Assembly (NCBI GenBank): GCA_964187785.1
Contig: OZ076409.1
Coordinates: 61,072,001-61,136,000 of the forward strand
Direction: 5' to 3'
Source of the DNA: Amphiscolops sp. MND2022
Taxonomy: Eukaryota
Length of the DNA: 64,000 bases
Shown here: positions 21,710 through 64,000 of the stretch, piece after piece
Numbering within the stretch: position 1 is the first letter of the stretch
Layout: the number at the start of each line of letters is the position of its first letter
Notes under the pieces: generated by a model
The model's database searches: none
Seen by the model: the letters and a program-made list of their open reading frames with translations, nothing else
What the model was told of the DNA's origin: nothing
Program-made: the position numbers and the translations under genes

Positions 21710-24387
21710 GGTTTTAGATTACATAAAATACTTTTTCCGCCTGAAAAGCGGCGATAAGCAACTTGGCCAATCGTTCGTAAGATTTTGATAGGGAATTCAT
21801 TTTGTAGAAAACCATGTTAATTTTACTCAAACAGCATCATTTTTCAAATGCAATTTTCGGGAACTGCGACTTTCTTGACTGTAATATCAATGCTGCATCA
21901 TTTTTCTTTTATCTTTTGGTTCAACCTACAAAAATATTCTTTGGCATGCGAATTTGGAAAACAATAGAAACAAAGTTTAGATACTGATTAACAGTTAAAA
22001 GCAGATTCAAAAGTTAGATTTTTAGTGTAGTTTTTTTCTTCAGCCCACTCCGTATCCATTCTGAAGAACTTCTTCTCTATGCTGTTCTTGGTCTTCTTTC
22101 TTTTTGGCAACTGAAACACAGTTTAATTGATCAAGGGAGAAGAAAATGGATCCCTGTCCAAGAATGACTATGCCGCAATTTTCCAAACTATGAGGGAAAA
22201 AAGGTGAAAGTTCTTCATTCAAGATGCCTGAACTTCTACGTACTCTATAGGTTATAACCTTTTAGACAGCACGCTTTTGTGCAGCATGCCAAAAGTTCCT
22301 GTACCTCCGACTAGAGGAAACAGTTGTTGACTCTCCAAATACATCTTATCTTTGAAAAAATGTATATTACACTTTACCGCGTGACAATTTTGTTTTCCCT
22401 AACCTTCAAAATTTTCCAAGAGCAAAAATATGATATACTTTTAGGTTGAAATCATTTTAGAGATGATACTTCTAGGCAGCAATAATCAGTTTTTTTCTAA
22501 CTGCAACAACAGCTTTGGAAAAAGCAATGAAATATGTAAAGCATTTTTAGTTATACGGGATGAAACAATATCACAATGAGAGAAAGACAAATATTTAATG
22601 TAAAACTCTGCGACATGACGAGATCATTTCAGTTAACGCAAGCAGTGTCACTACTTATTGGGAATTTCCTTCACAGTCGCAAAGATTTGCTTTGAGTCCA
22701 TGAAAAACCACTGTTAATAGGTGATCAATTTTCTCTGTTCTATTTGTTAATATGAAAAGTTCAAGCTTATTATCAGCTTCACACAAACTTCAGGTTGCCA
22801 ACATGCATTCATATATTTTTAAAAATTACGCGTATGCTGATTTCATACATGTGGTGAATTCTACTGAAAAACCCAGATGTGAGACACCCGTTGGACTCAA
22901 AAACGTATTTCCCGATCTTAAAAAGACAAAAAAAATCCAATACGGTGAGAAATATTTCGTCCAAAGTTTGAAAAAAATCGCACAGCGCCGAAACAATATT
23001 TGACATAGTTTAGTGTTGCAAAGGTAAAAAGTTGGTCCAAAGCAAAATTCCAATCCACTCCAAGAGTCCCACAATATCTCACCACCCAGATAAACCCGTG
23101 TTAACCTCTAGGCCAAGCAGCAAATGAAGTGACGGAGAAAACGAAGGAGAAAAGTATAGAATAGTTAAAGAACCTGTCAGTTCAGTTTCCAACAAAGGCA
23201 CAAAAATGTCTTTTTTTACGAAAGCGCCCACTGAAAAGTAACATTCAATTTGAACGATTTTGTGTGCATTCATGATTCAATCTGTGTATCATATTTTTCT
23301 GAAATATATCACTGAATTTATTCAGGGCAGAAAATACCTCAGTGTTTAATGAGCGTCTTCTTTAATGGTTATTTTGACTAAATTCGGTGTAACAGGTTGC
23401 TTTCGTTGAATATTTTCCCACATCTTAAAAACGAAAATTAGAGTCTTTAAATTTTATACAACCACAACTGGCATCAAATTTGGAGAAACTGCAGAGTTTT
23501 TTGGTATGGGCCGAGAAATGCTCACCTGGAGGCAGGCGAAGCGCCCCCGTAGCAGCGTTGCCCACTACTTTGAGAGTCTACTGAAGTCTCCCTTCTATAA
23601 TCAGCTGCGTTACGTTGACTAAAATCCACTTTGGATTGATTGGGACGGACTTGTACTAGCTTCCGGATTCTGTGTAGTGCTGCGAACCGACGGTCGTTTT
23701 AGCATTTAATCCGTTGTCAAGTACATCTAGACCATTTCGGTGTTGGAGAAAAACTTCTGAGCAACAGCTTAGTCTATTGCTTGTAAAATCTGCAAATGGG
23801 ATTTATTTTGATTTCATCTAGCTTTTTGCACATTTGTCTAACTAACTCTGAGATTGTTATTCAAGCCGATTAGCGAATATTGCACTACTCTCTCTACTGT
23901 TGGTATTTAACAGAGATCTCAAATCATCTTCTATTGTGTTTGTATTTTCTTGTCGTCCTCTGTTGAGTCTGCTCGAATATATCTCTGAATCGAGTCGTTT
24001 TCGTTAATATTCCTTGGGAAGTTCCCCAATATCACAATCATACTTTGCATATTTGATAATTTGACATTGACTTATAATTTAAATATTATACTAGTTATCT
24101 TACACTACTCCTGGGATGTAATTATGATATTAATACTTCTATGATGTCATGGTTCATATATCCCATCGAGAATATAGTGTTTTTTTTACTTTTCAAGTCA
24201 GGCATTACGTCTGACTCCCTAGAACGCTTTTCTCTAGCTTTTTTTACTGGTTGAAGGAGTGTTGTTTCCAAACTATATTATTGAAAAGAGTGTTGAATGA
24301 GTGTTGTTTTCAACCTATATTGTTGAAAAGAGCGAATCAGTACTATTTGTTAGAATTGTGACAACTTCAGGTGTGTACTGGAATGTA

Positions 24388-38500: not shown

Positions 38501-40373
38501 TTTTCCTTCAGGATTGCGTGGTTCAAAGATCTGGCATCTAGAGCAATTTTGACTGATTTGTCCTCCTTGACTGTCACCACCACATGTTGTATGAAAACTT
38601 CATCACTACTTTTCTCGACCTTTCTGATGTGACCTTCCTTTTTTAACTTCTATTTTTTCTTCCAGAGCTTCCTGCAACTGTAAGGGATTTCGTCTTCTTT
38701 TTTGTTGGGTGATGACTGCATCTTTTCGAAACTCGCATTTAATTTTGTATCCCTTACTTTTGCCTTGTCCACTGAACAAATCAGGGACTTTTCGCATTAG
38801 CTGTTTCATTGTTTGTCGTTTAGAATTGAGATTATTAATGTAAGAAAACTCACCAATTCCATTTGCTTCCTCCACTCAGAAATTTATTTAGGTTAGCCAG
38901 TCTCGTCCAATTAGCGAGCGTTTCCCTTCTCTCGAAATCAAAATCCTGGCGTACTTGATTGCCCGTTTCTCCAACTTTACGTTCACATTTGTGAATCCCA
39001 GTAGGTTGAGGGGTTTGTTGTTGTAGTCAACGTATTGTTCATTTGTGGGCATGGGTCTCACAAATATCACATCTACCTTTAGTAGCTCTCTTAAGTCTGC
39101 TTGAGTAACTATAGTGATTGGGGAGCCTGAATCAATCATTGTTGAAAATTTTTGATCATTTATTTTGCCTTTCATTACGAATGGTTGACTATCGTCCGCC
39201 TATGCGTAAGACAATATTGTCTTCATCTTGTTCCGTGTTTTCTTCTGATTGGCTGTATTCGCGCTTAATCAAGTTGATTCGCCGCATTCTTGCTCTTCCC
39301 GCAAACTTGCCCCTTTCCTTGACATTGCCAGTTTCGGGGCGTTCGCACATTCGGGCAAAGTGGCCGATTCTGGCGCAGTTTCTGCATTTCATATTCTTTG
39401 CTTTGCAAACCTCCAGATCGTTTTGTGAGAATTCTAGTCCGCATCTAGTACAATGTGTTTTTCTCTGTTACGGCATACACAGGTTCGCTTTTTTTGTCCC
39501 GTCTTTCACTTTCAAATGTTCGGAGCTGGCTAATCCCTTCTTCATACGCAACCGCGAATCTGAGAGCTTCTTGGGGGTCCTCTTTGGGCTCCGAACACAA
39601 CTTTTGCTGTACCATTTTGTTATTCTTGTTTTGAATAATTGTGTCCATGATTGAGCTTTCAGTTTGTTCATCAAATGCGCATTTTGATGCCAGTCCTGTT
39701 AGTGCGTGCCAAAACTGTCGTAGTGTTTCTTTGGACGTTCGTTCTCTCGAGAAAATTTTATAATGTTCTAACGTCCTGATTCTTGGTTTGACGAATGCTT
39801 GTTCGCAGTTTTCTTTCATCTGCTGTAGTGAAATCGTTGCTACTCTCATCTCTGGAAATTTGTCTGTCGGGGTTTTTCTTGCAACCGACCCCAGTGATGG
39901 AAATAGAACACTTACTATTTTTCTCTCTGCAGCTTGTTCATTCAAATTGTTGATCAGCGCAGCTACTCTCGGTTGTTGCTCTGTCGCTGTTCTGAGAACC
40001 TAAAATACCAAAATTGAATATTTCGCGTTTGCTGCTACAATGAAGAGATCCCACCATTCTTCCCAATCTGTTTTAGGGGCTGCTTCTGTCAAATCCCAAA
40101 AAGATTGCAATCTCGAAACTGCTGACGATCCCCCAGATGTTGTTGCTTCCCCATAAATTGACAAATCTCGCAGCGCTAGAGGGCTCGAGGAGTAAACTAA
40201 CTGAATACTGTGGTGCTATTGCTAATTGAAAACAATGATATATGTAGTATCGCGAATTCTAGCCAACTGTTAAATTTAGGAGACCATGTGGCAAATGATC
40301 TTCTGCTGAATTCTGTTTTCCATGCTTGTGTTTACAAACAACCTGTTTCTAAGTGAGCATGCGCTCTACCACA
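34830..40373 (-). mobile_element. Full-length, heavily decayed Ty3/Gypsy element
   Basis: LTRs 34830-35039 and 40174-40373, TSD GGGAC (34825-34829, 40374-40378), G-run PPT (C run at 35040). Fragments of gag (CRNCARIGHFARMC), protease, RT, RNase H (CDASREGL) and integrase (LHYGHP). Confidence 0.92.
35463..35525 (+). repeat. (TTG)21 microsatellite inside the Gypsy pol tail (poly-Q on the coding strand)
   Basis: Perfect trinucleotide run. Confidence 0.97.
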
Positions 40374-43368
40374 GGGACCCTTTGAAGACTTTTAAAAAAT
40401 TTCGAGAAAACCCAAAAAATGAGATTTTTGAAAAGTGTCACAGTGCCGAAAAATGAAACATTGAACCACATCGAAACAAATGAAGGGGGACCCTTTGGTG
40501 CAATCCAAAAATTTTCAAAAAAGTAGCATAGTGGACGTCGGTTTTGTTTCTTTTTGATTTGGCGAGGTTCTGAGTGTTCGAGTTTTTTTAACCTCCGTAG
40601 TTCAAGTTGTTGAATAAATGACAGAAAAGTGGACCTTGCGCGTCTAAAAAGACTTAGCCACTTTTCTTCAAAAGCGCCGACAAAAAATGCCACTGTAAGA
40701 GTCGGACATTTTTTGTTTTACAAAAAGCGCCGACTAAAACACCAATGTAAACTAGATGAAAGTCTCTAACAAAGATTTGGTGTTTGCAAATTTCGCGAAA
40801 ATTGAGCCTGAAATCGGCTCGGAGGATGATTTCATAAATACTGTACTCACTTCTGATAGATTAATGAGAATGTTTCTTACCACGCTGTGATCTAGTTAGG
40901 TCAAACTATCTAATGAGGCATTAACTTCTCATAATTTGCTATTGTCAATTTGTAGTATAGGACTTGGATCGAAAATCTTTTTTTTGCGTCTTAATAATTT
41001 TCGTTTACTTTAGGGGCAACCATTTTTAAGGATCCTTGGAAGGGCTCAATAAAAACATGGTGACATTTAACGCGTTTTATAAATTCGTGTTTCGCAAAGA
41101 CTGTCAGGAAGTGGGCAGGGAATATATGTAACAAGCTGAAAAGACAAAAAACCGGTACTAGAAAATGTGAACATCGAGTAAAGACCAATTATCCACATGA
41201 TCAAATGATTGTCATTCCATTATTGTCTGTCCTTTATTGTAAATTTTACCCTTTTCAGTCATTTCAGTGGAATTGGCTCCACTGCAGTGAACAATTTGCA
41301 TGTCATGCAACATGCAATCACTTGCATTGGTTGAAAATATTTCAAAAGAGTTGTTGAAGAATGAAAAGGAAACATTGGAACGACCTGCCATAAATCTTAT
41401 CTTTCATAATGTGATCACATGAAGTCCAATTACACCTGTGACTTTCGAACTTTTCTTTTGATCACTATTTTGGAGTTATCAATAAATTCATTTTGGAGTG
41501 ATCGATTATCAACGAGTGATCAATAAAACTGGGGGGGATTGGTTCGTTTGAATTTGGGTGGTCAAGATTTGAGTCAGTCAACTTTTGATTTGTCTATGAT
41601 GGTACCAAGATTTGGGCCAAGTTCCGAGTAACCAATTAACCAATTATAGCGCTATAGAGTTTTGTTGATTAAATCAAATACACAATTGGTGAATTATTTC
41701 TAAGAAACAAGAATTCAAATTAGATGTGACTTTCAGATAAGATTCCACAATTTATGAATGGAACTCAGGCAATATCCGTAAATATTCAAGTATCAATTGA
41801 ATATTTTGAAATCTTTCACGATTACGTGAGCAGCTATGAAGCTAGTTTCTGAAGGTTATTTTGATCTAAATGGTTCTATCTGGAACAGGTCAAAAGGTCA
41901 AAAGTTGAAGTGTCGTGATAGTTAACAAAGCTTGAACAAAATTTCTGAAATAAACAATGTGATAAAATCAAGTTTGATCATAAATCTGGAAATTTCTGAA
42001 ATATATCCGTACTAAAAGTGATTGATCTTCAATTGCTATTTGTTTGTTAATCTTTACTGAACCCTGCCGATTAAACTTAGTTATAATGCTTGCAGTGTAT
42101 CCTGTTTATAAATGGTAAAACTCTAGTCACCAACATTTGTTTCAAGTTTCCGTATAAATTTAAAGCACAGCATGATTTCTTCATTTGCTAATAATCTGAA
42201 TTACGTAACTAATTAGCAAATATTGCTAGTTTTTACCAATTTATTGACATTGAGCAATTTACCTTGACCTTGATCTTTGAAAGGTCATCATCTTATTGCC
42301 TAAGATCGACGCGCCCACAATGTTAGTGATTGGTACAAAAGCTCTGACGTCAAGAACTGACTCGGATCTCCATAATCACTAATGATCTTTCTCTGATTGG
42401 TCGAAACTCGAGGTTTCATCAACACCGGATGGACCTCCGATTGACCCAAAACTTGACCCTCTTACTGCATCACATGAACGAACTGATTAGCCAAATATTT
42501 ATTCTTTCTTTGTTTTTTCTCCACATTCCTAAAAGTCCTTGTATAAATAAATCAGGTATTCGCTTTTAATATAAATGGCTCACAAATTTGCACGTCTGTT
42601 CATTTGACTCAATTTCGTCACGCGCTCAACTTGGAATTTTATCAGCTGAGAAATTACAAATTAAAATCAGAACTGATTTTGTGGTCTGTATAGCTTGCGA
42701 TTCTTTCTTTTTCCTCCTCTGAATTCTCAAGATGTCGATGAGTATGCACGTTTACGGTGGTAGCGGATCCTATCAATGGTACCGGAAATCGAATCCTAAA
42801 CCCATTTTCCAGACCAGCTCCGACAGCTCAATTTTGCAATACACTTCCAGAATCAAAGCCAGAATAGCGTCCAGAATCAGAAGAAACAGCCCCAAATTCG
42901 ACGACAGTCCGGAACACACGCCACCCAGCTTAGTTCTGGCATACAGAAGTTTGGATAGCTAAAGAATCTTTGAATTTTTTAATGATCGCCGGCAAAATAT
43001 CTCCAGTGCATTAGTACCTCCTTCGAATTTAATACACAGTTCACAAGAAACATCTGTAAAAACTGAAATACATATATAATCTTTTGTGGCTAAATCAAAC
43101 TGATGAAACTCAATTTGCCAAGTATACAACAAGCCAGATTGCAGCTTAAAAGATTCCTAGTTTTTAAAGATTAGTTACATTAGTTATGTTAGATGGTTGT
43201 GTAAAATTTATAATAAAATTGTAAATTCGATGAAGTTTAGATATAACGTTGTTACTTTTATAGTACTTTTAACCTACGCAATTTAGCTAACATTTGGCTA
43301 TTTTTCCCAAATTTTCCCAGAGATCTTCTGATGAGTATAAGAAGGCACGAAACGTTTGAGAAAGGAAA

Positions 43369-44030
43369 ACAAGCCGCGACCGGCCCAAGTCGGCGCCATA
43401 TCCAAGGCTCAAAAATAGCAAAAAGACTTCCAAGTGTCAAGTATTCTTTTACAGTACTCGAAAATTGAAAGTTTTTTGAAAATTTTTTTTTCGAAAAAAT
43501 TACATACTCAAAAAAATGGACCGAGTGGCGCGCCGGGGCTCGCGCTAAAGTCTCACAATGCCGAAAAACTGAAAGAGGGACCCTTTGAGGTTTTTCAACA
43601 TCCACAGAATGGCATTCTGTCGCAAAACATGAAAAATTGAAGAAAACAAAAATTTTAATTTTCGGGAAAAAATCTCACAATGCCGAAAAAAACTGAAAGG
43701 GGGACCCTTTGGGATTTTTTAACATCCATTCTGTCGCCAAACATCAAAAAAATGCAGGGGGGATCCTTTGGGGAAATTTTTTTTCGAAAAAAAAGTCTCG
43801 CAGTGCCGAAAAAAAATGAAAGGGGGAGCCTTTGGTCTCGCCCGGTACGGTATGTTACGCGGAAAAACAGGAAAAACCTTTTTGGTTCAGTTCGCTAGAC
43901 TAAATAGTGCAATTTAGTGCAATAATATTTTGTAGAACTTTTAAGAACTATTTTGGTCAATTCGTGTGGATAGAAAAAAAAGAGTCACTATAATATTAGT
44001 TACATTAGTTCATGAAGCGCCGACTAAAAA
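43369..44030 (+). mobile_element. Helentron/HINE-like repeat (counterpart of 13481-14166)
   Basis: Same AGTCGGCGC...GCGCCGACT ends and internal units. Confidence 0.6.
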
Positions 44031-44946
44031 TCCCGACTAACAAAGCTTTATGTGAACACTGGATGGAATTTTCATTGCCCACCTGTAGATACCATCGAAT
44101 AGGTTTTCCACTACAAACAAGCTTCCTGGGCTACAATACTTCGGCATTCCATCGGTGGCTGCCGCAGAATAGTGTGAAATTCCGAAAAGCTTTAACACGT
44201 CAACTAACCATGCAAGAAAAATAAAACGAAAGAAAATCAGTCGAACTTTCCTTTATTCAAAAAATGAATAAGCCTAAACTAAACTAGTCTTCACTTTTGC
44301 GGTTTTGCATAACAGCAAAAACGATTGACCTCATTTGAAAAATTTAACACAGTCTAAAATTTCAGAACTTTCTACTCTATATATGTCTCTTTTCTCTGTG
44401 CAGATTGTTTTTTAAATAACTACCAAACCTATGTATTTGAGGATTGGTAACTTTTTGTTGTTAAGTGACGTTTTCAGCGATGCTCGTCCAATAATCACTT
44501 CAAAATTTCTTCCAATTCAACTTGTGAATAGGGAACCTTTGAAATAAAACGCGACTATAAAAGTGATTTGGTAACTTTGATGTTTTTTTTTGTTTTCAGT
44601 TAAAGTTAGGAACACAGAAGCTTTTTAAAAAGTCATTATTTGGGGGGTTTTTGAGCCTTAAGACTTGGGCGGCAACCGACTTGTTTTTTAGTCGGCGCTT
44701 TTCTTGAAAAGAATCGGCTATAGTCATGGCTTTTCGTCAGTGTTTTTTTTCGATGCACCTGAAGTGACCAAAATAATTCTACCAAAAGTTCTACTAAATT
44801 TTATATTGCACCTGTTGGCCCAGGAACTGAACCAAAAACGTTTTTCCGTTTTTCCGCGTAACATACATTACCGGGCGAAACTAAAGGGTTCCCCTTTCAC
44901 TTTTTGGAGTTTTGCGACAGAATGGATGTTGAAAAATCGCAAAGGG

Positions 44947-47900
44947 TCCACCATTTCAATTTTTCGGCATTCTGAGACTTTTTCAAAAAAAACAATTTCA
45001 TAAAAGGGTCCTCAAATCACCAACACTTGTTAAACATATGATTGAAGGTCCCGGCTTGTTAAACATATGATGATGAATTTATAATTACCATATTTTTGGT
45101 ATTTCTTGAATATATGTGTTGGCGTCAACTATGATGTATTTGATAGAGCGATGGTATCTTCTTTGATGTTTTCGTTCGATACTTCAAGTATTCTTAAGAT
45201 TCGTGTCTAATTTCTACATGGCAACAAATTCATCAGAAAACCTTTAGGAACAGGGAGCTAAACAGAAGTCCCAAAATTTCCAAGTTGCGCATTGGAAGCA
45301 AAGGATGACCTTTTGGTCTAAACTATTGGCATCACAAAAAATAGTCCTGCGTAGGATTCGAACCTACTCTAACACGATGAAAGGTCCGAAAAGCAAAATC
45401 TTGTAACCTGATTTTAGGTGGGCGCTTTATATTAGAGAAAAAAACTTTTTGAGTGGAAATTTCTTTCCATTATTTTTCGTTTACTTTTTTAAAACCAAAG
45501 CCCAACCCTTTGATTTTTGGCGAAAAGGAAGCGCGTTTCTAGCATAAAGGCCCCTAAAGGTTTTTCGGCACTGACTCACCGAGAAAATTTTTTCAAAAAA
45601 CAAAAAGATTTTGAGAGGTTTTATGTTAAGGAAAATCGTTTTTCATGTCTTAAGGGTGACCCAGTATCTAGTTTATTTATCCTAGTAAGATAAATAAACC
45701 AGATACTAGGTCACCCTTAAGACATGAAAAACGATTCGGGCTGACGAGTGTCTCTCAATTATTGTGGAAAAGACGTAAGGTTTCTCCCGGCTCTGTGAGA
45801 CTTTTTACAATTTTTTTTCAGTCATTGAAGGGTTCAGTTCCTTGGAGGTCACACCTTTGGGTAATTTTGTCACTGCGACTTTTTTTCGAACAAAAGGTTA
45901 TCGGGAAAAAGTTGAAATTTGAGTTGTGATATTAGCAGTACGGAGAAAATTTTTTACCCTGAAAAATCCCGCTTGGACACTTTCTGTGGTAGCAAAATAA
46001 AAAAAATTGCAGTGTGACTGCGACATTGTTTTGTAAATGGTCCAATAGACCAAAAAACTAGAAGTATAAACTCCAAATAGAGCCAAAGGGACTCAAAGGA
46101 TCCTCCTTTTCATTTTCCAGAAACTCTATTTGAAGTACAAATCCCCAAATGGTTTGTTTTGAAATGTGCACCTCCTTTCAATTGTTTTTTCAATTTACTA
46201 ACGTTTTGAAGCTCGTTTCATGTTTTCATGTACTTAACTGGAAATTTTTTATTTTTTTCAGCACAAAGAGTTCTCCCTTCAAATAGGTTTTGATAATGTC
46301 AGTTTTGATTTTTTTCTGAAAACATTTCCTTAACGACTTGAAATGCAACATATCAAACCACTCTGCAGACCATGCTCTCACAATTAATCCGAAGTCGTTC
46401 TATGGAATTTAATAAGTTTCCTTCATAACTAGCCCAATGTAGTTCAAAAGATGGTTTTAGATTACACAAAATACTTCTCCGTCTGGAAAGCGGCCATAAG
46501 CAACTCGGCCAATTGTTCGTAACATTTTGATAGGGAATTCATTTTGTATAAAACCATGTTAATTTCACTCGAACAGCATTTTAGCATTTTTAAATGTAAT
46601 TTTCGGGAACTGCGACTTTCTTGCCTGTAATATCAATGCTGCATCATTTTACTTTTATCTTTTGGTTTAACGTACATAAATATTCTTTGGCATGCGAATT
46701 TGGAAAACAATAGAAACAAAGTTCAGATACTGAATAACAGTTAAAAGCAGATTCAACAGTTAGGTTTTTAGTGTATTTTTTTTCTTCAGCCCACTCCGTA
46801 TCCATTCTGAAGAACTTTTTCTCTATGCTGTTCTTGGTCTTTTTTCTTTTAGGCAACTGAAACACAGTTTAATTGATCAAGGGAGAAGAAAATGGATTCC
46901 TGTCCAAGAAAGACTATGCCGCAATTTTCCAAACTATGTGGGAAATCAGTTGAAAGTTCTTCATTCAGGATGCCTGAGCTTCTACGTACTCTAATCTTTT
47001 AGACAGCACGCTTTTGTGCAGCATGCCAAAAGTTTCTGTACCTTCGACTAGAGGAAACAGTTGTTGACTCTCCAAATACATCTTATCTTTGAAAAAATGT
47101 ATATTACACTTTACCGCGTGACAATTTTGTTTTCCCTAACTTTCAAAATTTTCCACAAGCAAAAATATGACATACTATTAGGTTGAAATCCACCATTTCA
47201 TATCCACCATCATACGGCATTCTGAGACTTTTTCAAAAAAAAACTATTTCATGAAAGGGTCCTCAAATCTCCAATACTTTGACATTTTGAAGTCCTTTGG
47301 CTATTTTTGAGCCTTAGATATGGCGCCGACTTGGGCCGGTTCCGGCTTGTTAAACATATGATGATGAATTTATATTTACCATATTTTTGGTATTTCTTGA
47401 ATATATGTGTTGGCGTCAACTATGATGTCATTGATAGAGCGATGATATCTTCTTTGATGTTTTCGTTCGATACTTCAAGTATTCTTAAGATTCGTGTCTA
47501 ATTTCTACATGGCAACCATTTCATCAGAAAAACTTTAGGAACAGGGAACTAAACAGAAGTCCCAAAATTTCAAAGTTGCGCATTGGAAGCAAAGGATGAC
47601 CTTTTGGTCTAAACTATTGGCATCACAAAAAATAGTCCTGCGTAGGATTCGAACCTACTCTAACACGATGAACGGTCCGAAAAGCAAAATCTTGTTACCT
47701 GATTTTAGGTGGGCGCTTTATATTAGAAAAAAAACTTATTGAGTGGAAATTTCTTTCCATTATTTTTCGTTTACTTTAAAAAATCTTTTAGCCGGGGAAT
47801 TCGTGGGTTTAGCCATACGAGGGTTCGAGTCTCGCACTGCACCACGTTTTCTGTTCTAGGGTTTTTTCAGCACCATGCGACTTCGGAATTTTTAAAACCA

Positions 47901-49583
47901 AAGCCCAACCCTTTGATTTTTGGCGAAAAGTAAGCGCGTTTCTAGCATAAAGGCCCCTAAAGGTTTTTCGGCACTGACTCACCGAGAAAATTTTTTCAAA
48001 AAACAAAAAGATTTTGAGAGGTTTTCTGTTAAGGAAAATCGTTTTTCATGTCTTAAGGGTGACCCAGTATCTAGTTTATTTATCCTAGTAAGATAAATAA
48101 ACTAGATACCAGGTCACCCTTAAGACATGAAAAACGATTCGGGCTGACGAGTGTCTCTCAATTATTGTGGAAAAGACGTAAGGTTTCTCCCGGCTCTGTG
48201 AGACTTTTTACAATTTTTTTTTCAGTCATTGAAGGGTTCAGTTCCTTGGAGGTCACACCTTTGGGTAATTTTGTCACTGCGACTTTTTTTCGAACAAAAG
48301 GTTATCGGGAAAAAGTTAAAATTTGAGTTGTGATATTAGCAGTACGGAGAAAATTTTTTACCCTGAAAAATCCCGCTTGGACACTTTCTGTGGTAGCAAA
48401 ATAAAAAAAATTGCAGTGTGACTGCGACATTGTTTTGTAATTGGTCCAATAGACCAAAAAACTAGAAGTATAAAATCCAAATAGAGCCAAAGGGACTCAA
48501 AGGATCCTCCTTTTCATTTTCCAGAAACTCTATTTGAAGTACAAATCCCCAAATGGTTTGTTTGGAAATGTGCAGCTCCTTTCAGATTTTTTTCAATTTA
48601 CTAACGTTATTAAGCTCGTTTCATGTTTTCATGTACTTAACTGGAAATTTTTTTTAGCACAAAGAGTTCTCCCTTCAAATAGGTTTTGATAATGTCAGTT
48701 TTGAATTTTTTCTGAAAACAATTCCTTAACGACTTGAAATGCAACATATCAAACCACTCTGCAGACCATGCTCTCACAATTAATCCGAAGTCGTTCTATG
48801 GAATTTAATAAGTTTCCTTCATAACTAGCCCAATGTAGTTCAAAAGATGGTTTTAGATTACATAAAATACTTTTTCCGTCTGAAAAGCGGCGATAAGCAA
48901 CTCGGCCAATCGTTCGTAAGATTTTGATAGGGAATTCATTTTGTAGAAAACCATGTTAATTTTACTCAAACAGCATCATTTTTCAAATGTAATTTTCGGG
49001 AACTGCGGCTTTCTTGACTGTAATATCAATGCTGCATCATTTTTCTTTTATCTTTTGGTTCAACCTACAAAAATATTCTTTGGCATGCGAATTTGGAAAA
49101 CAATAGAAACAAAGTTTAGATACTGATTAACAGTTAAAAGCAGATTCAAAAGTTAGATTTTTAGTGTAGTTTTTTTCTTCAGCCCACTCCGTATCCATTC
49201 TGAAGAACTTCTTCTCTATGCTGTTCTTGGTCTTCTTTCTTTTTGGCAACTGAAACACAGTTTAATTGATCAAGGGAGAAGAAAATGGATCCCTGTCCAA
49301 GAATGACTATGCCGCAATTTTCCAAACTATGTGGGAAATCAGGTGAAAGTTCTTCATTCAGGATCCCTGAACTTCTACGTACTCTAACCTTTTAGACAGC
49401 ACGCTTTTGTGCAGCATGCCAAAAGTTCCTGTACCTCCGACTAGAGGAAACAGTTGTTGACTCTCCAAATACATGTTATCTTTGAAAAAATGTATATTAC
49501 ACTTTACCGCGTGACAATTTTGTTTTCCCTAACCTTCAAAATTTTCCACAATCAAAAATATGACATACTATTAGGTTGAAATC
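44947..49583 (+). repeat. Tandem duplication of a ~2.3-kb unit (44947-47190, 47189-49583)
   Basis: Both units run from TCCACCATTTCA to TATTAGGTTGAAATC and each contains the 103-bp palindrome (45634-45736, 48037-48139). Confidence 0.92.
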
Positions 49584-51820
49584 ATTTTAGAGATGATACT
49601 TCTAGGCAGCAATAATCAGTTTTTGTCTAACTGCAACAACAGCTTTGGAAAAAGCAATGAAATATGTAAAGCATTTTTAGTTATACGGGATGAAACAATA
49701 TCACAATGAGAGAAAGACAAATATTTAATGTAAAACTCTGCGACATGACCAGATCATTTCAGTGAACGCAAGCAGTGTCACTACTTATTGGAAATTTCCT
49801 TCACAGTCGCAAAGATTTGTTTTGAGTCCATGAAATACCACTGTTAAAAGGTGATCAAGTTTCTCTGTTCTATTTGTTAATATGAAAAATTCAAGCTTAT
49901 TATCAGCTTCACATAAACTTCAGGTTGCCAATATGCATTCATATATTTTTAAAAATTACGTGTATGCTGATTTCATACATGTGGTGAATTCCACTAAAAA
50001 ACGCCGATGTGAGACACCTGTTGGACTCAAAAACGTATTTCCCGAACTAAAAAAGACAAATAAAATCCAATACGATGAGAAGTATTTCGTCCAAAAGTTT
50101 GAAAAAAATCGAAGTGTCGAAACAATATTTGACATAGTATAGTTTTGCAAAGGTAAAAAGTTGGTCCAACGCAAAATTCCAATCCACTCCAAGAGTTCCA
50201 CAATATCTCACCACCCAGATAAACCCGTTTTTACGTCTAGGCCAAGCAGCAAATGAAGTGACGGAGACAACGAAGGAGAAAAGTATAGAATAGTTATAGA
50301 GCCTGTCAGTTCAGTTTCCAACAAAGGTACAAAAATTGTCTATGTTTTACGAAAGCGCCCACTGAAAAGTAACACTCAATTTGAACGTTTTCGTGTGCAT
50401 TCATGATTCAATCTGTGTATCATATTTTTCTGAAAAATATCGCTGAATTTATTCAGGGCAGAAATTACCTCAGTGTTCAATGAGCGTCTTGTTTACTGGT
50501 TATTTTGACTAAATTCAGTGTAACAGGTTGCTTTCGTTAAATATTTTCCCACATCTTAAAAACGAAAATCAGAGTCTTTAAATTTTATACAACCACAACT
50601 GGCATCAAATTTGGAGAAACTGCGAAGTTTTCTAGTAACGGCCGACAAAATGCTCACCTGGAGGCAGGCGAAGCGCCCCCGTAGCAGCGTTGCCCACTAC
50701 TTCGAGAGTCTACTGAAGTCTCCCTTCTATAATCAGGTGCGTTACGTTGGAAAATCCACTTTGGATTGATTGGGAGGGGCTTGTACTAGCTTGCGGATTC
50801 CTGTGTAGTGCTGCAGACCGGCGGTCCGTTTTAGCATTTAATCCGGTATCAAGTACATCTAGGCCATTTTCGTGTTGGGGAAAAACTTCTGAGCAACAGC
50901 TTAGTCTATTGCTTGTAAAATCTGCACATTGAAACCATTTTGATTTCATCTAGCTTTTTGCACATTTGCCTAACTAACTCTGAGAATATTATTCAAGCCG
51001 TCTTAGCGGACATTGCACTACTCTCTCTACTGTTAGTATTTACTAGAGATCTCAAATCATCTTCTATTGTGTTTGTATTTTCTTGTCGTCCTCTGTTGAG
51101 CCTGCTCAAACATCTCTCTGAATTGAGTCGTTTTCGTTATTATTCCTTGGGAGGTTCCCCAATATCGCATTCATACTTTTCAAGTCAGGCATTACGTCTG
51201 ATTCAAAAGAACGCTTTTCTCTAGCTTTTCATTTGCTGGTTGAAGACATTTCAAAGAATGAGTGTTGTTTCCAAACTATATTTTTGAAAAGAGTGAATCA
51301 AAACTATTTGTTAGAATTGTCACAACTTCAGGTGTGCACTGGAGTGTATTGTATCAAAGATTATCAAAGAATGGCCCCTTTGACTGCGGGTGGTGGGTAT
51401 ACATTTGTAAGGTCTGTGACGTCCAAAATAGAGGGACTCACGTTACTACAAATAGTAGCACCCTACTATGACGTCAACCAAGTTATTTGAAGTTCCTTGC
51501 CAAAGCGGACATTACGTCCTATTGCATCAAATTATAAGAAGCAACGAGTTTGACTGATAAAACTTACAAGCTGTAACTACAACCCCAACGACACCCTTAG
51601 TGAGGTGACATGAATGGTTATTGAGTATCACTATCGTCATACCTTAGATACAGGTAAATACTGTAAGTGTTTATTTGTGAATGAATGGTAGCGGCGTATC
51701 GGACGTTAGGTCCTCTTAGCTGTAATGCCAGCAAACTTACAATTAAACTAACAATCTTATTGGCTACTGCAATATTTGACAACGCTTCATCTAGGCTAGA
51801 GCATCAGTCTAGTTGAATCC

Positions 51821-54500: not shown

Positions 54501-54955
54501 AACAAGCGGTGATCGGCCCAAGTCGGCGCCATATCTAAGGCTCAAAAATACCAAAAGGACTTCAAAATGTCAAAGTATTGGTGAATTGGGGACCCTTTTA
54601 TGATTTCTTTTTCGAAAAAAGTCTCACAATGCCGAAAAAAACTGAAAGGGAGGACCGTTTGGGATTTTTCAAAATCCATTCTGTCCAAAAATATCAAAAA
54701 ATTGAAGGTGGGACCCTTCGGTGAAAAAAAAATTTTCGAAAAAAAGTCTCACAGAGCCGAAAAAAACTCTTTGGCCCCGTTGAGTTTCTTAAATGATATA
54801 AAAATACTACTTCGTAAGCTAAGAATTGTAAGAAGTTACGAAATTGAGAAATTGTAAGATTGTAAGAATTGTAAGAAAAGTGGACCATTCAGCGTGAGAT
54901 TGTCAGCTGAAAAAGAAACAAGACGGGAACTTCTAAAGTCGGCGCTATATCTAAG
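54501..54955 (+). mobile_element. Helentron/HINE-like repeat copies, the second interrupted by the LTR at 54956
   Basis: AACAAG...CCCAAGTCGGCGCCATATCTAAGGCTC at 54501. A second head ...AGTCGGCGCTATATCTAAG is cut exactly before TGTCATGCC. Confidence 0.65.
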
Positions 54956-57202
54956 TGTCATGCCAGCATGATGGAAATATAATCTACTAAATATTTGTAA
55001 TGTAAATATTATGTCTTATGTACTTAGATATGGGCAATATGATGTCATATAATAAGAGCCATGGTTGTGAGCAACCCTACGTTACTTGTACCTTAATCCC
55101 TATCCCCCCTGAGTTTGAGCTATATATATTTACTTATTACTGAGCGCTCTAATTCCGGTGTCCGCACAAAATGATCTTGCCAATAGCTTTTAATGTGCTA
55201 TCTTATTCAATATTGGTTTGTCACGATAAGGGAGAGAAGTTTTCCGGTCAGACTGGACCGAGAGATGTAGAAATAATGAAATCTGTAACTTCTACTAGCT
55301 CCCTCGCCTCAGGACTTGTAGTCGTGACGAATTTCAGAAAAAGTTCATCACTAATCCATCAGCGGACTTAGTGATACTACAGCTTGATTTATTAGTGAAA
55401 TTACAGTGCTATATTATCAAAGTTCATCGCAATCACATCGCCAAGATTGCGGGTGAACAAAAATTGGGACATTTATTTGATTTCATTTAATGATCCATCA
55501 GCGGATCTCACGGGACTTTAAAATGCATGAAAACCATCCCATACTCATCGCCGTTTTGTGATTATTAACCTTCAATATGCTTCTCATTTCTTAAAAGAGC
55601 ATAACACATCTATATTTCATCGTCCTGACTAGTAACAATAAGAAATGAGAAAGTACATCCTTAATTCATCCTAAAAAAGAGTGAAGTGCTGGATAACTGT
55701 TTTATTAGACTAATTCATCACTAGTTCATCGTAAATTCATCGCTAGTTCAACTTGCGCTAGAATTAGCCAAATTTTCAGTTGAGTTCATCCTAAACTCAT
55801 CGTTGGAATTCGATTCATTAGATTTTGCTGTTTTATTGAATGTATTCATCCTAAAGTCATCGTATATTTGTCTTTACTGTAGAATTGGTTGTTTCACCTG
55901 TTTTATCGACTGAATTCATCCTGAATTCATCGTTATTTTCACTAGTGCTGGAAATTAGCTATTTTCGAGGAGAGTTCATCCTTTTACCATCGTCGATTTA
56001 AATTGTGCTGGAAATCGTTCATTTCGAAGAGAGTTCATCCTTTTATCATCGTCATTTTAAATAGTGTTGATTTCCGAGCGAGAAAGACTACCATTCATCG
56101 CATTTTCATCCAGAGCTAAACTATACTTGGAAATCAGCGAATATTCTTACAAGTTCATCGCATTTCCATCTTCGAGTTTTAAATCATTGATTTTGGTGCT
56201 AGAATCAGCGGAAAACATCGTTTTCCCATCCCAAAGTGTGCTTTACTCTAAATTTGCTTGAAATTTGTGCGTTATTGAATAATTTGAGTCCATTTTAGTT
56301 ACTATAGAAACCATGATGTTATGTGCAGGCAATTGCGACACTGTAAATTGATGACTAAACGCCATTAACACATGTAGATGTGCCATGGTGCGTGGCCACT
56401 TTGCGGCAGTTCACAACACCGGTCACGTGACTTACCATTTTAACACCAGTGGTAACAGCCAATGAGAAGAGGCTGGTAAGAGATTAGCGTCTTACCAGCC
56501 TGAAAAGACACGTGAACTGCTGTATTTTGGACCGCCATTAGCGATTACTCAGACCGAAATTGCGACAAGCTACTATCCAGTTGAACACCTCACGCCGAAT
56601 TTTACTCGAAAGTACATCTCATTTTCATCTTCAGAAACTATAATACTAAAACTGAGTAATTTCTTTTGACGCACTTACAACTGCGATGAACATTGGATGA
56701 ACTTTCCTATTCACCTTACTAATTTCCTGCTACTTTCTTTACGACTTGTTTATTTGTACTAGTCATCGATAAAACATCTCTGTTCAAACTTAGTGAATTA
56801 AAGATCGTAAAACCAGATAAAATAACAAAAATACATCGCAATAACATCTCAGATAATCCAGTCTTCACTCATAATTCTTTTCTCCCATCTCTATGAACCC
56901 AGATCTAGGCACTGAACTCAGAAGCGGAAGAATTATTAGTTCCTCGTTAGAAAGACCTGTTCCAACGGATCCAGACATGGCTCAGTCCTCTGCCAATGAC
57001 TCCGATAGTAACGAAACTTCTGATATCTCGTCTCAGTTATCTGAAATAAAAGAGAGTTATGAAAGAAAGATAAACGAGTTACAAAATGAGTTTAGTCAAC
57101 TGAAGGACTTAATGATGGCTGTCATAAGTAAGACAGACACCGAAAACCGACAATCAACTTCGAAAAGTCCTTCAAAGCCGGCCCACACAGTTGGGCTCGA
57201 CA
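54956..57202 (+). repeat. Putative 5' LTR (~2.25 kb)
   Basis: Starts with TG where a known repeat head is interrupted. Imperfect terminal inverted repeat. Ends in CA directly before a PBS-like TGG. The second LTR is not available for confirmation. Confidence 0.65.
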
Positions 57203-58398
57203 TGGTGACAGGAGCAACAGAAACCCGCTCCACCCGCCCAACAACCAGCTTCACCAACTTCAGAAGTTACCAAGAAGACGATTCAGACGAAGGAGAATCA
57301 ACCCCCAGAAGCAATGAGGAACGACTACTCAATGCAATCGAGACGATCCCCCAACGGATCAAAAACACAACCACCAACACGAAGCTTCTGCAGACACACG
57401 TGCCAAATTTCAGAGGCCAAAAAGACAAATTCGTCGAATTTGAGCACCTTCTCCTCAACCACCTTAGCCCGCTTGCCAACAAAATCACCGAGGAGAACAA
57501 ACTACACTTCTTTCAAAGCCTTTTGAGAGATGACGCAATAGAATACTGGCAATCCATCCAGATAACGCCAATGACAACACTAAAGGATGTACTCGACCTC
57601 TTCAGAAAAGAATTTGCAAAAGAGGATCTAAAGGAAGTGGCCCGTTACAAATGGGATCAAGCACGCTATGATCCCACAACAGAAACATTCGGAGATTTCC
57701 TCAAAAATCTCAAGAAGACTGCCAAACAAGCCTTCGGCAATGAGGCCGACAGAATAATCAAAATGTTCCTGTTTGGAAAACTGCCAGTCGAGATTCAACA
57801 AGAGCTCACTATGGCAAACAAAGAAGAGAGCTCCCCAGAGGAAATCAAAACCTACCTAATGCGAAAATACCAGTACCAGCAGTACGTCGCGCCACCTACG
57901 GCAATCCAACCATTTAACGCGGTCACCTCCTCAGCACCACCTACGATTACAACGACGAAGCCCACAACAACAACGACGACCACGCAACCGACAGAACGAA
58001 AACGATTTGAGGGACAATGTTTCTACTGCGGAAAGACAGGACACCGCAAAACGGAATGTCGCGCCCGACAACGAGACGAAGCGAACGGCATAAAGAAGAA
58101 GGATGCAATCCCAATGAAGAAAGCAGCCGATCCAGATAAGCCGAAATATAATCCAAAATTGGTCTGCCAGATTTGCGGTTACACAGGCCACTCAGCAAGG
58201 GATTGCAGACGACGCGTCCCTAAAGAAAGCAGTTCTGCATATGGAAAGATTCCATACGCAACGAATTCACAAGATGACAACAAAACTAGAAGACAAGATT
58301 TAAAACGACAACAAAAACCGATGAACCCTATGCAAGCAGTTGCCGAAGAAGAAGACCAAGAAAGCTACTCTGATGAAGACATAAATCAGGGTTTTTGA
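56893..58398 (+). CDS. gag: Gag with two CCHC zinc knuckles
   Basis: 501-aa ORF with CFYCGKTGHRKTEC and CQICGYTGHSARDC, and a capsid-like region VPNFRG...FFQSLLRDDAIEYW. Confidence 0.93.
   Translation: MNPDLGTELRSGRIISSSLERPVPTDPDMAQSSANDSDSNETSDISSQLSEIKESYERKINELQNEFSQLKDLMMAVISKTDTENRQSTSKSPSKPAHTVGLDMVTGATETRSTRPTTSFTNFRSYQEDDSDEGESTPRSNEERLLNAIETIPQRIKNTTTNTKLLQTHVPNFRGQKDKFVEFEHLLLNHLSPLANKITEENKLHFFQSLLRDDAIEYWQSIQITPMTTLKDVLDLFRKEFAKEDLKEVARYKWDQARYDPTTETFGDFLKNLKKTAKQAFGNEADRIIKMFLFGKLPVEIQQELTMANKEESSPEEIKTYLMRKYQYQQYVAPPTAIQPFNAVTSSAPPTITTTKPTTTTTTTQPTERKRFEGQCFYCGKTGHRKTECRARQRDEANGIKKKDAIPMKKAADPDKPKYNPKLVCQICGYTGHSARDCRRRVPKESSSAYGKIPYATNSQDDNKTRRQDLKRQQKPMNPMQAVAEEEDQESYSDEDINQGF
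57203..57214 (+). promoter_or_regulatory. Primer-binding site, tRNA-Leu-like
   Basis: TGGTGACAGGAG immediately after ...GACA. Resembles the common tRNA-Leu PBS TGGTGTCAGGAG. Confidence 0.6.
58389..58395 (+). promoter_or_regulatory. -1 ribosomal frameshift slippery site G GGT TTT
   Basis: CAG GGT TTT TGA ends gag. The -1 frame GGG TTT TTG ATT CCG is the pol frame. Confidence 0.8.
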
Positions 58399-61300
58399 TT
58401 CCGCCACGATTTCCGTCCGCTACCAACGACACGCGCGACAAACGACTTACGACTCAACAACAGACTCACAACCGTCCAATGAAGAAATGGCAGCCTTCAC
58501 TGGACAAACGACCAAAAGCTGACGACGTCTATCAGCGAAGACTTTCCAACGATGAAAAAGCGATGAGAAATGCACGTCAACTCAACGGCAGCCGCTTTTC
58601 TCCACTCGCTGAAATCAACGATGAACAAACGATGAACTGGCAACCAAACACCATGAGGCAGGTGGAAGATGCCAAAGAGATGGAAACCCACTATCTAGAC
58701 GACGACTCGACTACACACTCAACAATCGACAAACGGCTTAGTATTAAAAAACATGCACAACAGAGTAGTATTAACATTTCAAAAGCTAAAAAACATGCAA
58801 CTAAAACAGAAATTCACGTTCTCAGTCCCACTTTACATTTAAACAAGAAAGATAAAATGCTTTACGTCCCTCTTCAGTTTGACAAATACGAAAACAGCGC
58901 ACTTTTAGACACAGGCGCAATACAAAGTGCAATGTCTGAAGCCGAATTGCGAAAAATAACAACGGCTCATCCAGAAGCCATCCTTCAAGAATTCCCCCCT
59001 CCGAATTTCAAAATTCAGATAGCAAACGGGAACTTAGTCCCAGTGCGTAAGCAAGTCTTACTTAGATTTTACGTTGCTGGAAAAGTATTTGAAGAAACGT
59101 TCCTAATCCTTCCAACAATGGGAACAATTTTAATTGGAATGTCCTTTTTTGAAAAGTACTCAGTCAACTTAGACATCAAAAACCACCTTGTCCACTTCCC
59201 TAATCACATGATGTCCATGCAAGTTAGACAGCAAAAGAACAACAGATTCAAAACTGGTTTAATTGATTTGTGTTCCAGTACTAGAACAGTGATCCCTCCT
59301 CTCCATCAAGTGATGATACAGGTCCACAGTGACGCGGACATCTCACTTACAACTGGTACAGTTGAGGGCTCACCTGGATTCATGCGAAAGACGTGTTTGC
59401 TTGTTTCTCCACCTTTGGTTGACCTAGACGAGGGCAAGACGACAATCCAGGTCACCAACCCAAACAACCACACGTACACACTTGAAGCCAACACCACTCT
59501 GGCACACTTTCGCATCCCGACACCACACCAGGCGGCAAACATCACGCCCATGCCAGTGGAGCACTTGAACTTGATCACCAAGTACCCAGATGAAGCCGAA
59601 GCAGTGATCAACCAACTGTTCGTGAACCCTGAAATGAAATCAACCAAGTGGTACCCAACTCCCGAGACGTGCAGTGAGCCAGACAAACTCAACGCAATTG
59701 AGCGACGGATTTATGATGAGATTCTGGCACTGCGAGAGCTCGAAAAGCTTGACCCGTCCCAATCCGATGAACAACGGATGAATTTCCTGAAGAACTTCAA
59801 CTGGGACGACTCGCTTCTTACTCCGTCTCAACGGTTACAGGTAGAGGAGTTGCTGGTAAAGTACAACTCCATTTTTGCTAGACATCGTTTTGATATTGGC
59901 ATGAACACTGATTTTAAAGTTAAGTTAACACCTCAACATGAAGAACCTGTTTATTCACAAAGTCTCCCGACTCCGACAAATTTGAAGGACGATTTGCTCG
60001 TGGAGTTAGCTCTAATGCAAGAGTACGGGATTATAACTACTTTGCCTCACAGCAAATACTCTTCCCCGATATTTGCTTAGCGTAAACCTAATGGTAAATT
60101 GAGGATTTTAGTTGACTTGAGAAGAATAAACCACCTGATCAAAAACGATTACGGTGAGCACAATCATCCCGTAACAACAATTGCTGACGCTGCCCAACAC
60201 ATGGCCGGGAAAAAGTACTTCTGCAAACTTGACTGTTCCCAGGCCTACCATTGCATTCCAATGGCTGATGAGCAATCTGTCCAACTGTTATCGTTTAATT
60301 TTGGGTCTAGAATTTTTGCATTTTTACGTCTAGCACAAGGTCTTAATCGTTCTTTGTCAGCATTCACAGGAGTAATCCGTGAGTATTTGGACCCCTTGGT
60401 CAAAGCGGACCGCTGTGCCCAATATGTTGACGATATTGGAATTGCAGCACACTCACCCGAAGAATTGATTACTAACCTTGAACTTGTTTTCCAACAATTG
60501 CACAAAGCTGGTCTTAAACTTAGCATGAGTAAATGTGAATTTGGACAAAAACAAATTGAGTACTTGGGAAAAACCATTTCTAGCACTGGTATTGCTCCCA
60601 TTGAAAAACGCGTAACAGACTATTTAACCAAGTTGAAACCCCCCAATTCAGTGAAAGCGTTGCAACGTTATCTTGGTTTTGTAAACTTTTACAGGTCTTA
60701 TATTCCCCGTCTAGCTGATAAAACTTGTTGTTTACAAGAACTCATCAAGAAAGACGTCCCTTTCAAGCTGAACCAACAACATAAAGATGCTATTTTTGAA
60801 ATTAATGAAAGTTTGTTAAAAGCAACAAAAGTGTCTCTGAAATTGCCATTACCAGATAAACAATTGGTAATCATGTGTGACGCCAGCGAACACGCTGCCG
60901 GCTATGTGTTGTTAATCGAGGATTATGCAGACCCGTCAGTCAAACATACATACGCCCCTGTTGCATTTGGCTCTAAGAAATTTCAGGGCGGCCAGATGTC
61001 TCTAACAATGTATGCCAAAAAGTTTTTAGCTATGCACTTTGCCTTCGATGAATTTGGCCACATTTTGTGGGGTGCGAAAAAACCCATCATTGTTATGACT
61101 GACAATAAGGCCTTGACTAGATTTTTTCAGGCGAAACATATCCCGCCTTCACTTTGGAATTTTTGTGACCAAACCCTTCAGTTCAATTTTTTACTAGCAC
61201 ATGTACCAGGAGTTGAAAATCCCGCAGCGGATTACTTATCTCGGCTTGAGATTAGACCTGAAGACCGTGTACATTTAAAATTGACTGATACTATTCCAAT

Positions 61301-63488
61301 TCACAGAATCGAGATCGACATCGCCTCCCGTACACCAAAACAGGAGGAAGACGAGCCTGATTACTTTCCCACGAGCGAACCACTCAGATGCAAACGCCAG
61401 AAGGATGTCAAAGAGATGAAATTGGCAACTGGCACTGACGTGGCTCATGACGATGGGAAAGGGATGAAGTTCACCAACTGTGAGAGAACAGCGGCCTCAG
61501 ATGACTTCGCGACTGACAACCATCTGACGTACCGCCTCACAGACGTGGACGAGCCGATTCAACTCTCGCAATTCATCCGTAAAGTAACACTATCACACCC
61601 GGTAATGAGTCAGGTTAGCCCCGCTGAGGGGATCGATCTAATTCAGGTCCAGAAAAATAACTGGGTTATTCAAAAAATGATTAGATTTTTAGAAGGTACT
61701 GAAATTTTGCAACACCCAGTTAATACGCAAGATCAGTTTTTTCAAAAGTTGCACAAAAACCGAAAACGCCTACAAGTTGTAAACGGTGTCTTGTACAGAC
61801 AGTTTTTTGATCACACGGGACTGGAGTCTCACAAGCAGTTAGTTGTTCCTGAAGACTGTATTTTAAAAATAATTAAGACTCTACATAACAGCCCGGTACA
61901 AGGACACCCTGGTTTAAAGAAAATGTTGCACGAACTTCGTAAAAGATATTACTCTCCTAACTTAGCCTGTAAAGTTCAAAAAGTCCTTGACGGATGCGAA
62001 AACTGCATGAAATCTAGAAGTGTAAAAGAAACGCAACTACGTCCACCGTTACAAAAAATCTACGACCCGTGCGACGGACCAGAAGACCTGTTGGAAATAG
62101 ACATCGTTGGTCCACTCCCGGCGTCGAACGGTTTTACACACATTCTGACGGCTGTTGACGTTTTTTCACGCTACCTGTTCGCCGTTCCGCTGAAGAGACC
62201 TGATACACATTCCGTAGTCAGAGGATTACTGTCGATCTTCACAAAACACGCGTATGTGCCCAAACACATTCTGACGGACAAGGGCACGGCGTTCACGGCT
62301 GAACTTCTGTCTGAAATCGCGAAAGCGGCTGATATTCACATCTCCCATGCCACGATAAAGCACGCGCAGACAATAGGCATGGTGGAGAGAACGCACGCGA
62401 AACTGAAAAAGATCCTTAAAATTAGTGTAAACGCAGACAGACCACAATGGGACCGCTATGTCGACATAGCAATCATGGCCCATAACACAACGTATCATGA
62501 TTCACTGAAATGTTCACCAACTGAAATTTTCCACGGAAGAACACCATACAACTCACTAGATCTGCAATTCCGAAACGCAAACAAACCGGCTGAAACAAAG
62601 TGCAAGGACGTGAACGAAATTCTAGACAAAATGAATTTTATCTTAAGAGACAATCTAGATAACATCATTTCCGCCTATCACAAGTACAAAACGTACTATG
62701 ATAGAAAAGCACGAGCACAACCACTGAAGGTGAACGAATTTGTATTCCTACTAGACCCTAAGTACGACTCTCAGAGAAGCAAAGAAGAGTTTAAAACTTT
62801 CCACTGGAAAGGACCGTACAAGGTGATGAAAGTGCTATCCGATAGCAACTACATCATCCGCAAAGTAGGCACACATAAAACTCAGTGCGTACATCGCATG
62901 CGACTGAGATTGTTCAAACCGGAATTTCCGATTGATGATATCAACGTGTCCAAGCATCTTTACCCAGACACTGAAAGGGTTGAAGACACGGACATATTCG
63001 ATTCGAATATTCCGACAACCGACGACGTAGATCAGAACGAGAACGACAATCTAGATCAAGACTTAGTCGAAGATGAACCTTCAGCAGAAATAGTTCCACC
63101 AGTACAAGAGCGACACAGTCCACAAGTATTTCCACCAGAAATAACCACGAGAATAGAATATCAAAAAGTAGAAACTGACCACAACAACTTTAGACCACCT
63201 ACAGTTAGATTTGGAACGCGAGAAGAAATTATTCTACCGCCTCCCCGCGATGAGAGTAGGATAAGAGTACCTCTGAGAGACGAACAACACGAAAATCAGT
63301 CACAACAGACAAACACGCAAGATGAAGATGAAGAAAGGATGAGTTCTAGACCGTCTAGATCAAATCAAAGTAGGTACAGGTTACGCGAGAACCCTACACC
63401 GAAAACGTATCCAGACTTCCTCATTCATGAGATTACTTCAGCTAGAAACGCACTGAGAAAGACCAACAAAATAGACGTAACGATTTAG
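58395..63488 (+). pseudogene. pol: Pol (protease, RT, RNase H, integrase) with one in-frame stop
   Basis: LLDTGA, YVDD, CDAS, HNSPVQGH..CENC, EIDIVG/TDKG/VERT, GPY. Single TAG at 60078-60080 in IFA*RKPNGKLR, with both halves in the same frame. Confidence 0.95.
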
Positions 63489-64000
63489 CCAAGAAAAGTC
63501 TCATTTTAAATTTGAGATGTGTTACGGATGAACAAATCACAAAAACGAACGAATTACATGCAATTTTAACTTAAAGAACACATGAAGATGTAAAATGGAT
63601 GAAAAGTTACTAAAAATCACATGAAAAACGCATACAAACAAAACGCGATGTAAAACGGATGAAAAACGATCAAAAAACCAGAAAAAACAACCATAAAAAT
63701 TTCGAGATGAAAAAAGGATGAAACCACATGAAAATTTAGCTCAGACACACGAGAGATGAAAAAGTGATGAACTCAGTCAAAAATTCGACCAATCAACATG
63801 CAATATTTACTAGCGATGCATTTGAGATGGAAAGTACCATCAGAATGCGAACGCACCCACGTCCATGCTATCATAAGACTCTAGCTCGGCTAGAGGATGA
63901 AATAGCGATGAACTTGAACCAATTATTCATAAAATACATGAAATCAATCAATAAGATGAATTTGTGATGGACACTACCATCAAATCGTGACCGAATTTAT

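Follow-up and report, generated by a model that had tools for sequence, protein, structure and literature searches.

The gag frame of a Ty3/gypsy LTR retrotransposon was found to open inside the 5′ LTR, so that 310 bp of coding sequence, equal to 103 codons and one further base, precede the LTR end, and to continue in frame through the primer-binding site (PBS). Judged by its pattern of substitution, the LTR-encoded segment is protein-coding and under purifying selection, and the layout is clade-wide: it occurs in six or more families, with Gag identity as low as about 27–30%. We have good confidence that this is a gypsy element whose gag runs from 310 bases inside the LTR across the primer site, likely because its promoter lies close to the distal end of the long LTR, which would place the first 103 Gag codons in the repeated R/U5. 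The element begins within, and extends beyond, the window analysed, by which is meant the whole 64,000-nt stretch of DNA (G000:C1:61072001–61136000). Its features, in window coordinates unless stated, are:

54951–54955, no strand: target-site duplication CTAAG, 5 bp; its second copy abuts the 3′ LTR end and lies beyond the window
54956–57202, + strand: 5′ LTR, TG...CA, 2,247 bp; 4 mismatches to its partner
56401–56497, + strand: block of the LTR that recurs, at 75% over 104 columns (E 4e-6), in a family with 55% Gag identity
56700–56892, + strand: ATG-free stretch ahead of gag, the nearest preceding ATG being at 56697; transcription probably starts here
56893–58398, + strand: gag, 501 aa, with a capsid-like helical core (about 165–330) and two CCHC knuckles
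56893–57202, + strand: LTR-encoded Gag N-terminus, 103 codons; LRSGR basic motif, acidic Ser/Asp stretch, long helix, linker
57019–57150, + strand: predicted single long helix (AlphaFold2), Gag residues 43–86, partial heptad pattern
57202–57204, + strand: junction ATG (MVTG), read from the sequence as the last LTR base plus the first two PBS bases
57203–57214, + strand: PBS, 12 nt, abutting the LTR and within the gag frame; complementary to the host tRNA-Leu(CAG) 3′ end
58377–63488, + strand: pol, −1 frame; protease, RT, RNase H, integrase (Pfam order)
63489–64000, no strand: start of an extra region of 8.5 kb that separates pol from the 3′ LTR and contains antisense open frames
G000:C1:61144066–61146312 (L032:566–2812), outside the window: partner (3′) LTR, 17.1 kb further on

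An identical copy of the first 445 bp from 54956 was located by sequence search 17,110 bp downstream. The two LTRs differ at 4 of 2,247 bp (0.18% divergence), identity stopping exactly after GGCTCGACA, and such low divergence makes the 19.4-kb element young. A shorter LTR, ending near 55330 at CGTGAC, was ruled out by this full-length identity. CTAAG precedes TGTCATGCC at 54956 and the same 5 bases follow the 3′ LTR end, as the preliminary description had predicted for the sequence beyond 64000, and LTR identity reaches 57202, well past the gag ATG at 56893. That description had also placed the 5′ boundary at 54956, within an interrupted repeat and in imperfect inverted match to the LTR end; this holds, with termini that are inverted repeats (7 of 9 positions matching) and a host repeat, split by the insertion, whose intact form (...CTATATCTAAGGCTCAAAA) is present nearby in L032. 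Only GGGGAG adjoins the 3′ LTR at the place where a polypurine tract was looked for.

The element is a Ty3/gypsy LTR retrotransposon, given the Pfam domain order of its pol, and it further combines direct TG...CA LTRs and a short duplication with a tRNA PBS and a capsid/CCHC Gag; integrase before RT, the order of Ty1/copia, was not found in its pol. Among solved structures, those nearest to pol come from foamy virus and Ty3, together with a plant pararetrovirus-type enzyme entry, and the window copy of pol has one in-frame stop (60078–60080). Shortly before the gag stop, at 58389–58398, is GGGTTTT, which from its form we take to be a candidate −1 frameshift site.

The frame opens at ATG 56893 and stops at 58398, with the junction ATG (57202) 103 codons in, so that the start within the LTR and the in-frame passage through the LTR/PBS junction, both noticed in the preliminary description, are confirmed. 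Its interpretation of CA|TGG as an LTR end followed by a tRNA-Leu-like PBS agrees with the LTR pair and with the host tRNA 3′ ends, as the PBS pairs with the final 12 nt (CCA included) of tRNA-Leu(CAG). ARAGORN called a tRNA-Leu(CAG) gene in two of the eight loci examined. The tRNA-Leu 3′ arm pattern has 849 matches genome-wide, including a dense tandem array at G000:C8:35.59–35.64 Mb, and the isoacceptor of that array is the primer of this clade. The junction ATG occupies the same frame in all six families tested, with a strong context (gacATGG) in six families, and is best read as a by-product of the LTR-end CA and the PBS TGG, automatic when a PBS abuts the LTR. Since one of the two other frames is shut by a TGA within this PBS, retention of the frame by descent suffices to account for its being shared.

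The boundaries are not a matter of chance, as all 38 sister LTRs end CGACA at the same point, followed by a PBS in 19 and by other sequence in 19, and each of the 15 sister elements with paired LTRs carries, at these boundaries, a 5-bp duplication of its own, no two of them alike. Starting from the ATG at −310, 28 of the 38 sister LTRs keep the frame open as far as the LTR end, the remainder having a stop (n = 2), a frameshift (n = 3), or no start motif found (n = 5). A homolog search returned 136 proteins, those listed being ENA records, that fall into groups of about 85, 55, and 40% identity; in every group ~100 residues precede the MVTG motif, and such N-termini were located in this genome as well. 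Five further families, with LTR ends of the form ..CA|TGGTGACAGGA, were represented by two sets of loci, one of 90 (41 PBS and 49 unrelated flank junctions) and one, from three deep families, of 60 (25 PBS and 35 flank junctions, every one parting at CA). That ..CA is followed either by a PBS or by unrelated sequence places the LTR end there in these families too. ATG-to-LTR-end distances of 310, 331, and 322 all keep the frame, and the LTRs of two of these other families are 1.8 and 1.1 kb. Across families, gag starts 300–650 bases inside the LTR, the LTR-encoded part of Gag is 103–216 codons long, and Gag cores range down to 26–32% identity with that of the window (10 groups at 80% among 42 rows; a Gag tree, made in quick mode, shows family depth only). 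A profile search of representatives yielded 1,816 relatives at E ≤ 0.001, with an MVTG-like motif in 28 of 147 new ones.

Selection on the LTR-encoded segment was estimated in three families (14, 8, and 10 copies; 6 of 33 fetched loci dropped). For the LTR part, pooled Nei-Gojobori dN/dS was 0.15 (0.10–0.23) in the window family and 0.22 (0.15–0.33) and 0.14 (0.09–0.21) in the two others, values that come from non-independent pairs and from copies found by protein search, which biases toward low dN; for the capsid core of the same families it was 0.04–0.09. Loci picked by the PBS junction alone avoid the protein-search bias. The 14-mer of this junction has 7,527 exact matches in the genome, compared to 1 for a reversed control; the sample took the first 70 of them, which all lie at the beginning of contig C1. 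Upstream of the junction, 51 of the 70 were stop-free for 100 codons in the gag frame and 19 had stops, compared to 0 of 70 open in each other frame and 0 of 70 open in any frame in a control region (−900 to −600); Gag homology was present downstream in 59. Disjoint pairs of these loci were matched on the core downstream, and 17 of the 28 pairs could be aligned (11 dropped). In these, dN/dS of the LTR part was 0.14 in frame compared to 1.42 and 1.46 in the shifted frames, mismatches by codon position were 0.16/0.14/0.39, and 7 of 11 indels were a multiple of three. The dN/dS comparison across copies that the preliminary description had proposed gives 0.14–0.22, and the segment before MVTG, whose conservation it had made decisive, is conserved, with purifying selection and a frame open in most sister LTRs.

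The predicted Gag matches Pfam zf-CCHC above cut-off (E 1.7e-7), and its nearest ESM Atlas clusters are retrotransposon Gag (Retrotrans_gag/Ty3_capsid, 0.92–0.94); a fold search with the whole Gag model gave only weak matches (Arc/dArc/HIV capsids), none at E ≤ 0.001. The AlphaFold2 helix has pLDDT 75–83 at residues 51–80 within surrounding sequence of low confidence (mean pLDDT 57.8), and in its best register 58% of a/d positions are hydrophobic. The first 15 residues of Gag carry a net basic charge in 24 of 28 loci and a net charge of zero in the four copies of the window family, and the rest of the LTR-encoded segment is net acidic in 27 of 28. The segment opens with a basic N-terminal motif common to families and is probably the ordinary N-terminus of Gag; it might conceivably serve oligomerisation or targeting. 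The acidic/coiled-coil Gag extension of the preliminary description stands as an acidic and helical segment (dN/dS 0.14–0.22; helix predicted at 43–86), though the word ‘extension’ is doubtful for something that starts with a shared basic motif. In one family (L225, L234, L253, L261), Gag begins MGNKRS/N plus a polybasic run, which we take to resemble a myristoylation-plus-basic membrane signal; others begin with NLS-like basic runs.

The sequence ahead of gag was examined in 28 non-redundant loci, drawn from the 39 of 70 PBS-picked loci with an intact start motif (31 were dropped for lacking an intact motif-bearing start). There was 1 ATG in the final 100 nt before gag compared to 83 at −400 to −300, while permuted control triplets were barely depleted (17–51 compared to 35–81). 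A TATA occurred at −180 to −105 in 16 of the 28 loci compared to 1–5 in six other intervals; in the window's own family, no clear TATA was found at the expected place, and the gap from the gag ATG to the nearest upstream ATG is 196 nt. We infer that transcription would start about 100 nt before the gag ATG, from a promoter deep in the LTR, for the window copy by analogy with sister families. With such a start site, the 30 upstream ATGs of the window LTR would pose no problem. The shared block at 56401–56497, which contains an E-box-like (GGTCACGTGAC) and a CCAAT-like motif, names that we assign from their presumed form, is likely an upstream promoter element. The first gag ATG has a weak context, so a start could instead occur at 56977, the one of the six ATGs between 56893 and the junction ATG that is both in frame and in strong context. 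A poly(A) signal search of the LTRs found no conserved position, and mapping of R via recombination blocks in 16 sister LTRs found no clear border, with identity patchy (63–100% by bin).

The LTR start (window 54956–55260 compared to L202:2294–2599) is common, over 300 bp at 83% identity with the first 100 bp almost identical, to two families of 55% Gag identity, and the window LTR is a mosaic relative to its sisters (97% to about 56000, 63–89% at 56000–56900); together these suggest an exchange of LTRs. Three families (L031:3124–7822, 3′ of the window; L203:2199–4887; L205:2248–5287) have several antisense frames in the interval from pol to the 3′ LTR, one of these frames zf-BED-like (E 0.002, below the Pfam cut-off), which look like a spliced accessory gene. 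TTCATC motifs are numerous in the LTR (55340–56220) and the reverse, GATGAA, in the post-pol region (63520–64000 onward); they may serve sense and antisense promoters as binding sites. Elsewhere, the window holds a second gypsy element with 160-bp repeats (26837–32703), a LINE-like ORF of 879 aa (19074–21713), and long duplicated blocks of 92–98% identity (7616–24046 compared to 38381–51179).

A promoter near the far LTR end is the likely reason that gag begins inside the LTR. A single genomic RNA would start shortly before the gag ATG, with a short ATG-free leader, and would give one Gag product, the N-terminus of which (basic tip, acidic linker, helix) would be its normal pre-capsid domain. 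R/U5 is copied into both LTRs in each round of reverse transcription, so the frame fragments in 3′ and solo LTRs are likely a by-product, passively regenerated, and selection on the fragment would act through the 5′ copy. The preliminary description had proposed instead that two Gag isoforms could be made. In this reading, which is considered unlikely, translation from 56893 would yield the long form, while the short one would begin at MVTG by way of an internal transcript or internal initiation and might be a regulator like Ty1 p22. In its favor, the junction ATG is in frame and in strong context in six families, the product would retain linker, capsid, and knuckles, and in Ty1 an N-truncated Gag does arise from an internal transcript (PMC4974528, PMC7175516). 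The conservation of that ATG, however, is forced by the LTR-end CA and PBS TGG, and every one of the 28 loci has 2 to 19 ATGs between the first ATG and the junction. A scanning ribosome would be unlikely to get to MVTG past such ATGs, of which the window copy has six, including 56977 in frame with strong context, and an RNA for the short isoform would need a start inside the coding LTR; initiation at MVTG is thus left unsupported.

The fragments outside the 5′ LTR might alternatively have a second job. Every 3′ or solo LTR would then be a complete gene start, its ATG followed by 100–216 selected codons free of stops, and thousands could make truncated Gag N-termini (a basic-acidic-helix protein) with random tails that interfere with Gag assembly or seed host fusion genes. 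The whole inferred expression unit (promoter, leader, ATG) is contained in the LTR, and copies number in the thousands (1,813 candidates for the window LTR, along with the PBS junctions counted above), yet this too is given little probability. Open-ended frames that read into host DNA, as the preliminary description anticipated, do occur, the 3′ LTR frame of the window element running 9 codons into host DNA before a stop; their tails, however, are chance-like in length, with a median of 10.5 codons in 100 distinct flank junctions compared to 12 in the window background, and 7% over 50 codons in both. The target site is variable, the 15 different duplications in 15 pairs ruling out a fixed site, so that insertion supplies neither a stop nor a defined tail. 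One 3′ LTR (L206:776–3094) is inserted in frame in the ORF of another high-copy element and continues for 670 codons (a 773-codon open frame, in which no Pfam hit was found), but only 1 of 40 hits spans the junction, marking a single nested insertion and ruling out a multi-copy fusion family. Less probable still is a location of the frame in U3, where it would encode a separate accessory protein expressed from the RNA 3′ end, with gag starting at MVTG. LTR-borne accessory frames are known from retroviruses (nef, sag), long LTRs can hold such genes, and the frame here is wholly within the LTR and under selection; against this, it has no stop in the LTR, is in frame with gag in every family, and has the TATA and ATG-free leader upstream rather than downstream. 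The favored reading remains a single Gag, translated from an LTR-internal start.

Overall, a whole gypsy clade, and not a lone oddity, encodes a fifth to a third of Gag in its LTR, under selection. Such gag genes are mis-annotated when the internal region is translated alone, as the resulting ORFs begin at MVTG, and the LTRs of these elements should not be treated as non-coding in dating or modelling. With this layout, minus-strand strong-stop DNA would have to be about 400–750 nt long, and each solo LTR would be a potential gene start.

Taken as a whole, the preliminary description was right about the LTR-borne Gag segment and the open-ended frames, its two isoforms found no support, and it overlooked both the clade-wide spread and a precedent in Ty1 and Tca5. 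Narrow phrase matching of the literature, with subscription journals, Repbase, and supplements outside its scope, found no gypsy precedent for an LTR-internal gag start. The element resembles Ty3 and animal Ty3/gypsy elements in its PR-RT-RNase H-IN order, CCHC Gag, and separate gag and pol frames; in Ty3, the PBS adjoins the 5′ UTR, outside gag (PMC4974528). Osvaldo-like elements have LTRs of 1–2 kb, and differ in a tRNA-Lys primer and mostly 4-bp duplications compared to Leu(CAG) and 5 bp here (PMC3286476, in its available portion); the tRNA-Lys PBS of that lineage was not found in the window element, nor does that portion describe an LTR-internal gag start for Osvaldo elements. The Ty1 p22 model, as far as the sources used here present it, shares with a putative solo-LTR product the notion of a shortened Gag restricting its own element, but p22 keeps the capsid and is without the N-terminus, whereas the fragment here would be N-terminus only. 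Tca5 (Candida albicans, Ty5-like, Ty1/copia) has an ORF that opens at 382 of a 685-bp LTR, ~300 bp inside, an overlap nearly equal in depth to the 310 bp of the window element, while some families here reach twice that of Tca5; it differs in being copia-type with a single ORF, low copy number, few solo LTRs, and an iMet primer, its in vivo start is called unclear by the authors, and no selection test is reported in that review (PMC4139406). In Ty1 (Saccharomyces cerevisiae, Ty1/copia), the GAG start codon is in the 5′ LTR, 40 bp before its end (PMC10512236), and the PBS is within the GAG frame (PMC4974528); a start codon in the LTR and a PBS in the gag frame are both present here. Ty1 belongs to the other superfamily, and the clade of the window differs from it in an overlap of 310 bp, up to about 650 bp, in a tRNA-Leu(CAG) primer, and in a gypsy-type pol order. 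The layout is a gypsy version of the Ty1/Tca5 arrangement, the principle of which is already known from copia-type elements of yeasts.
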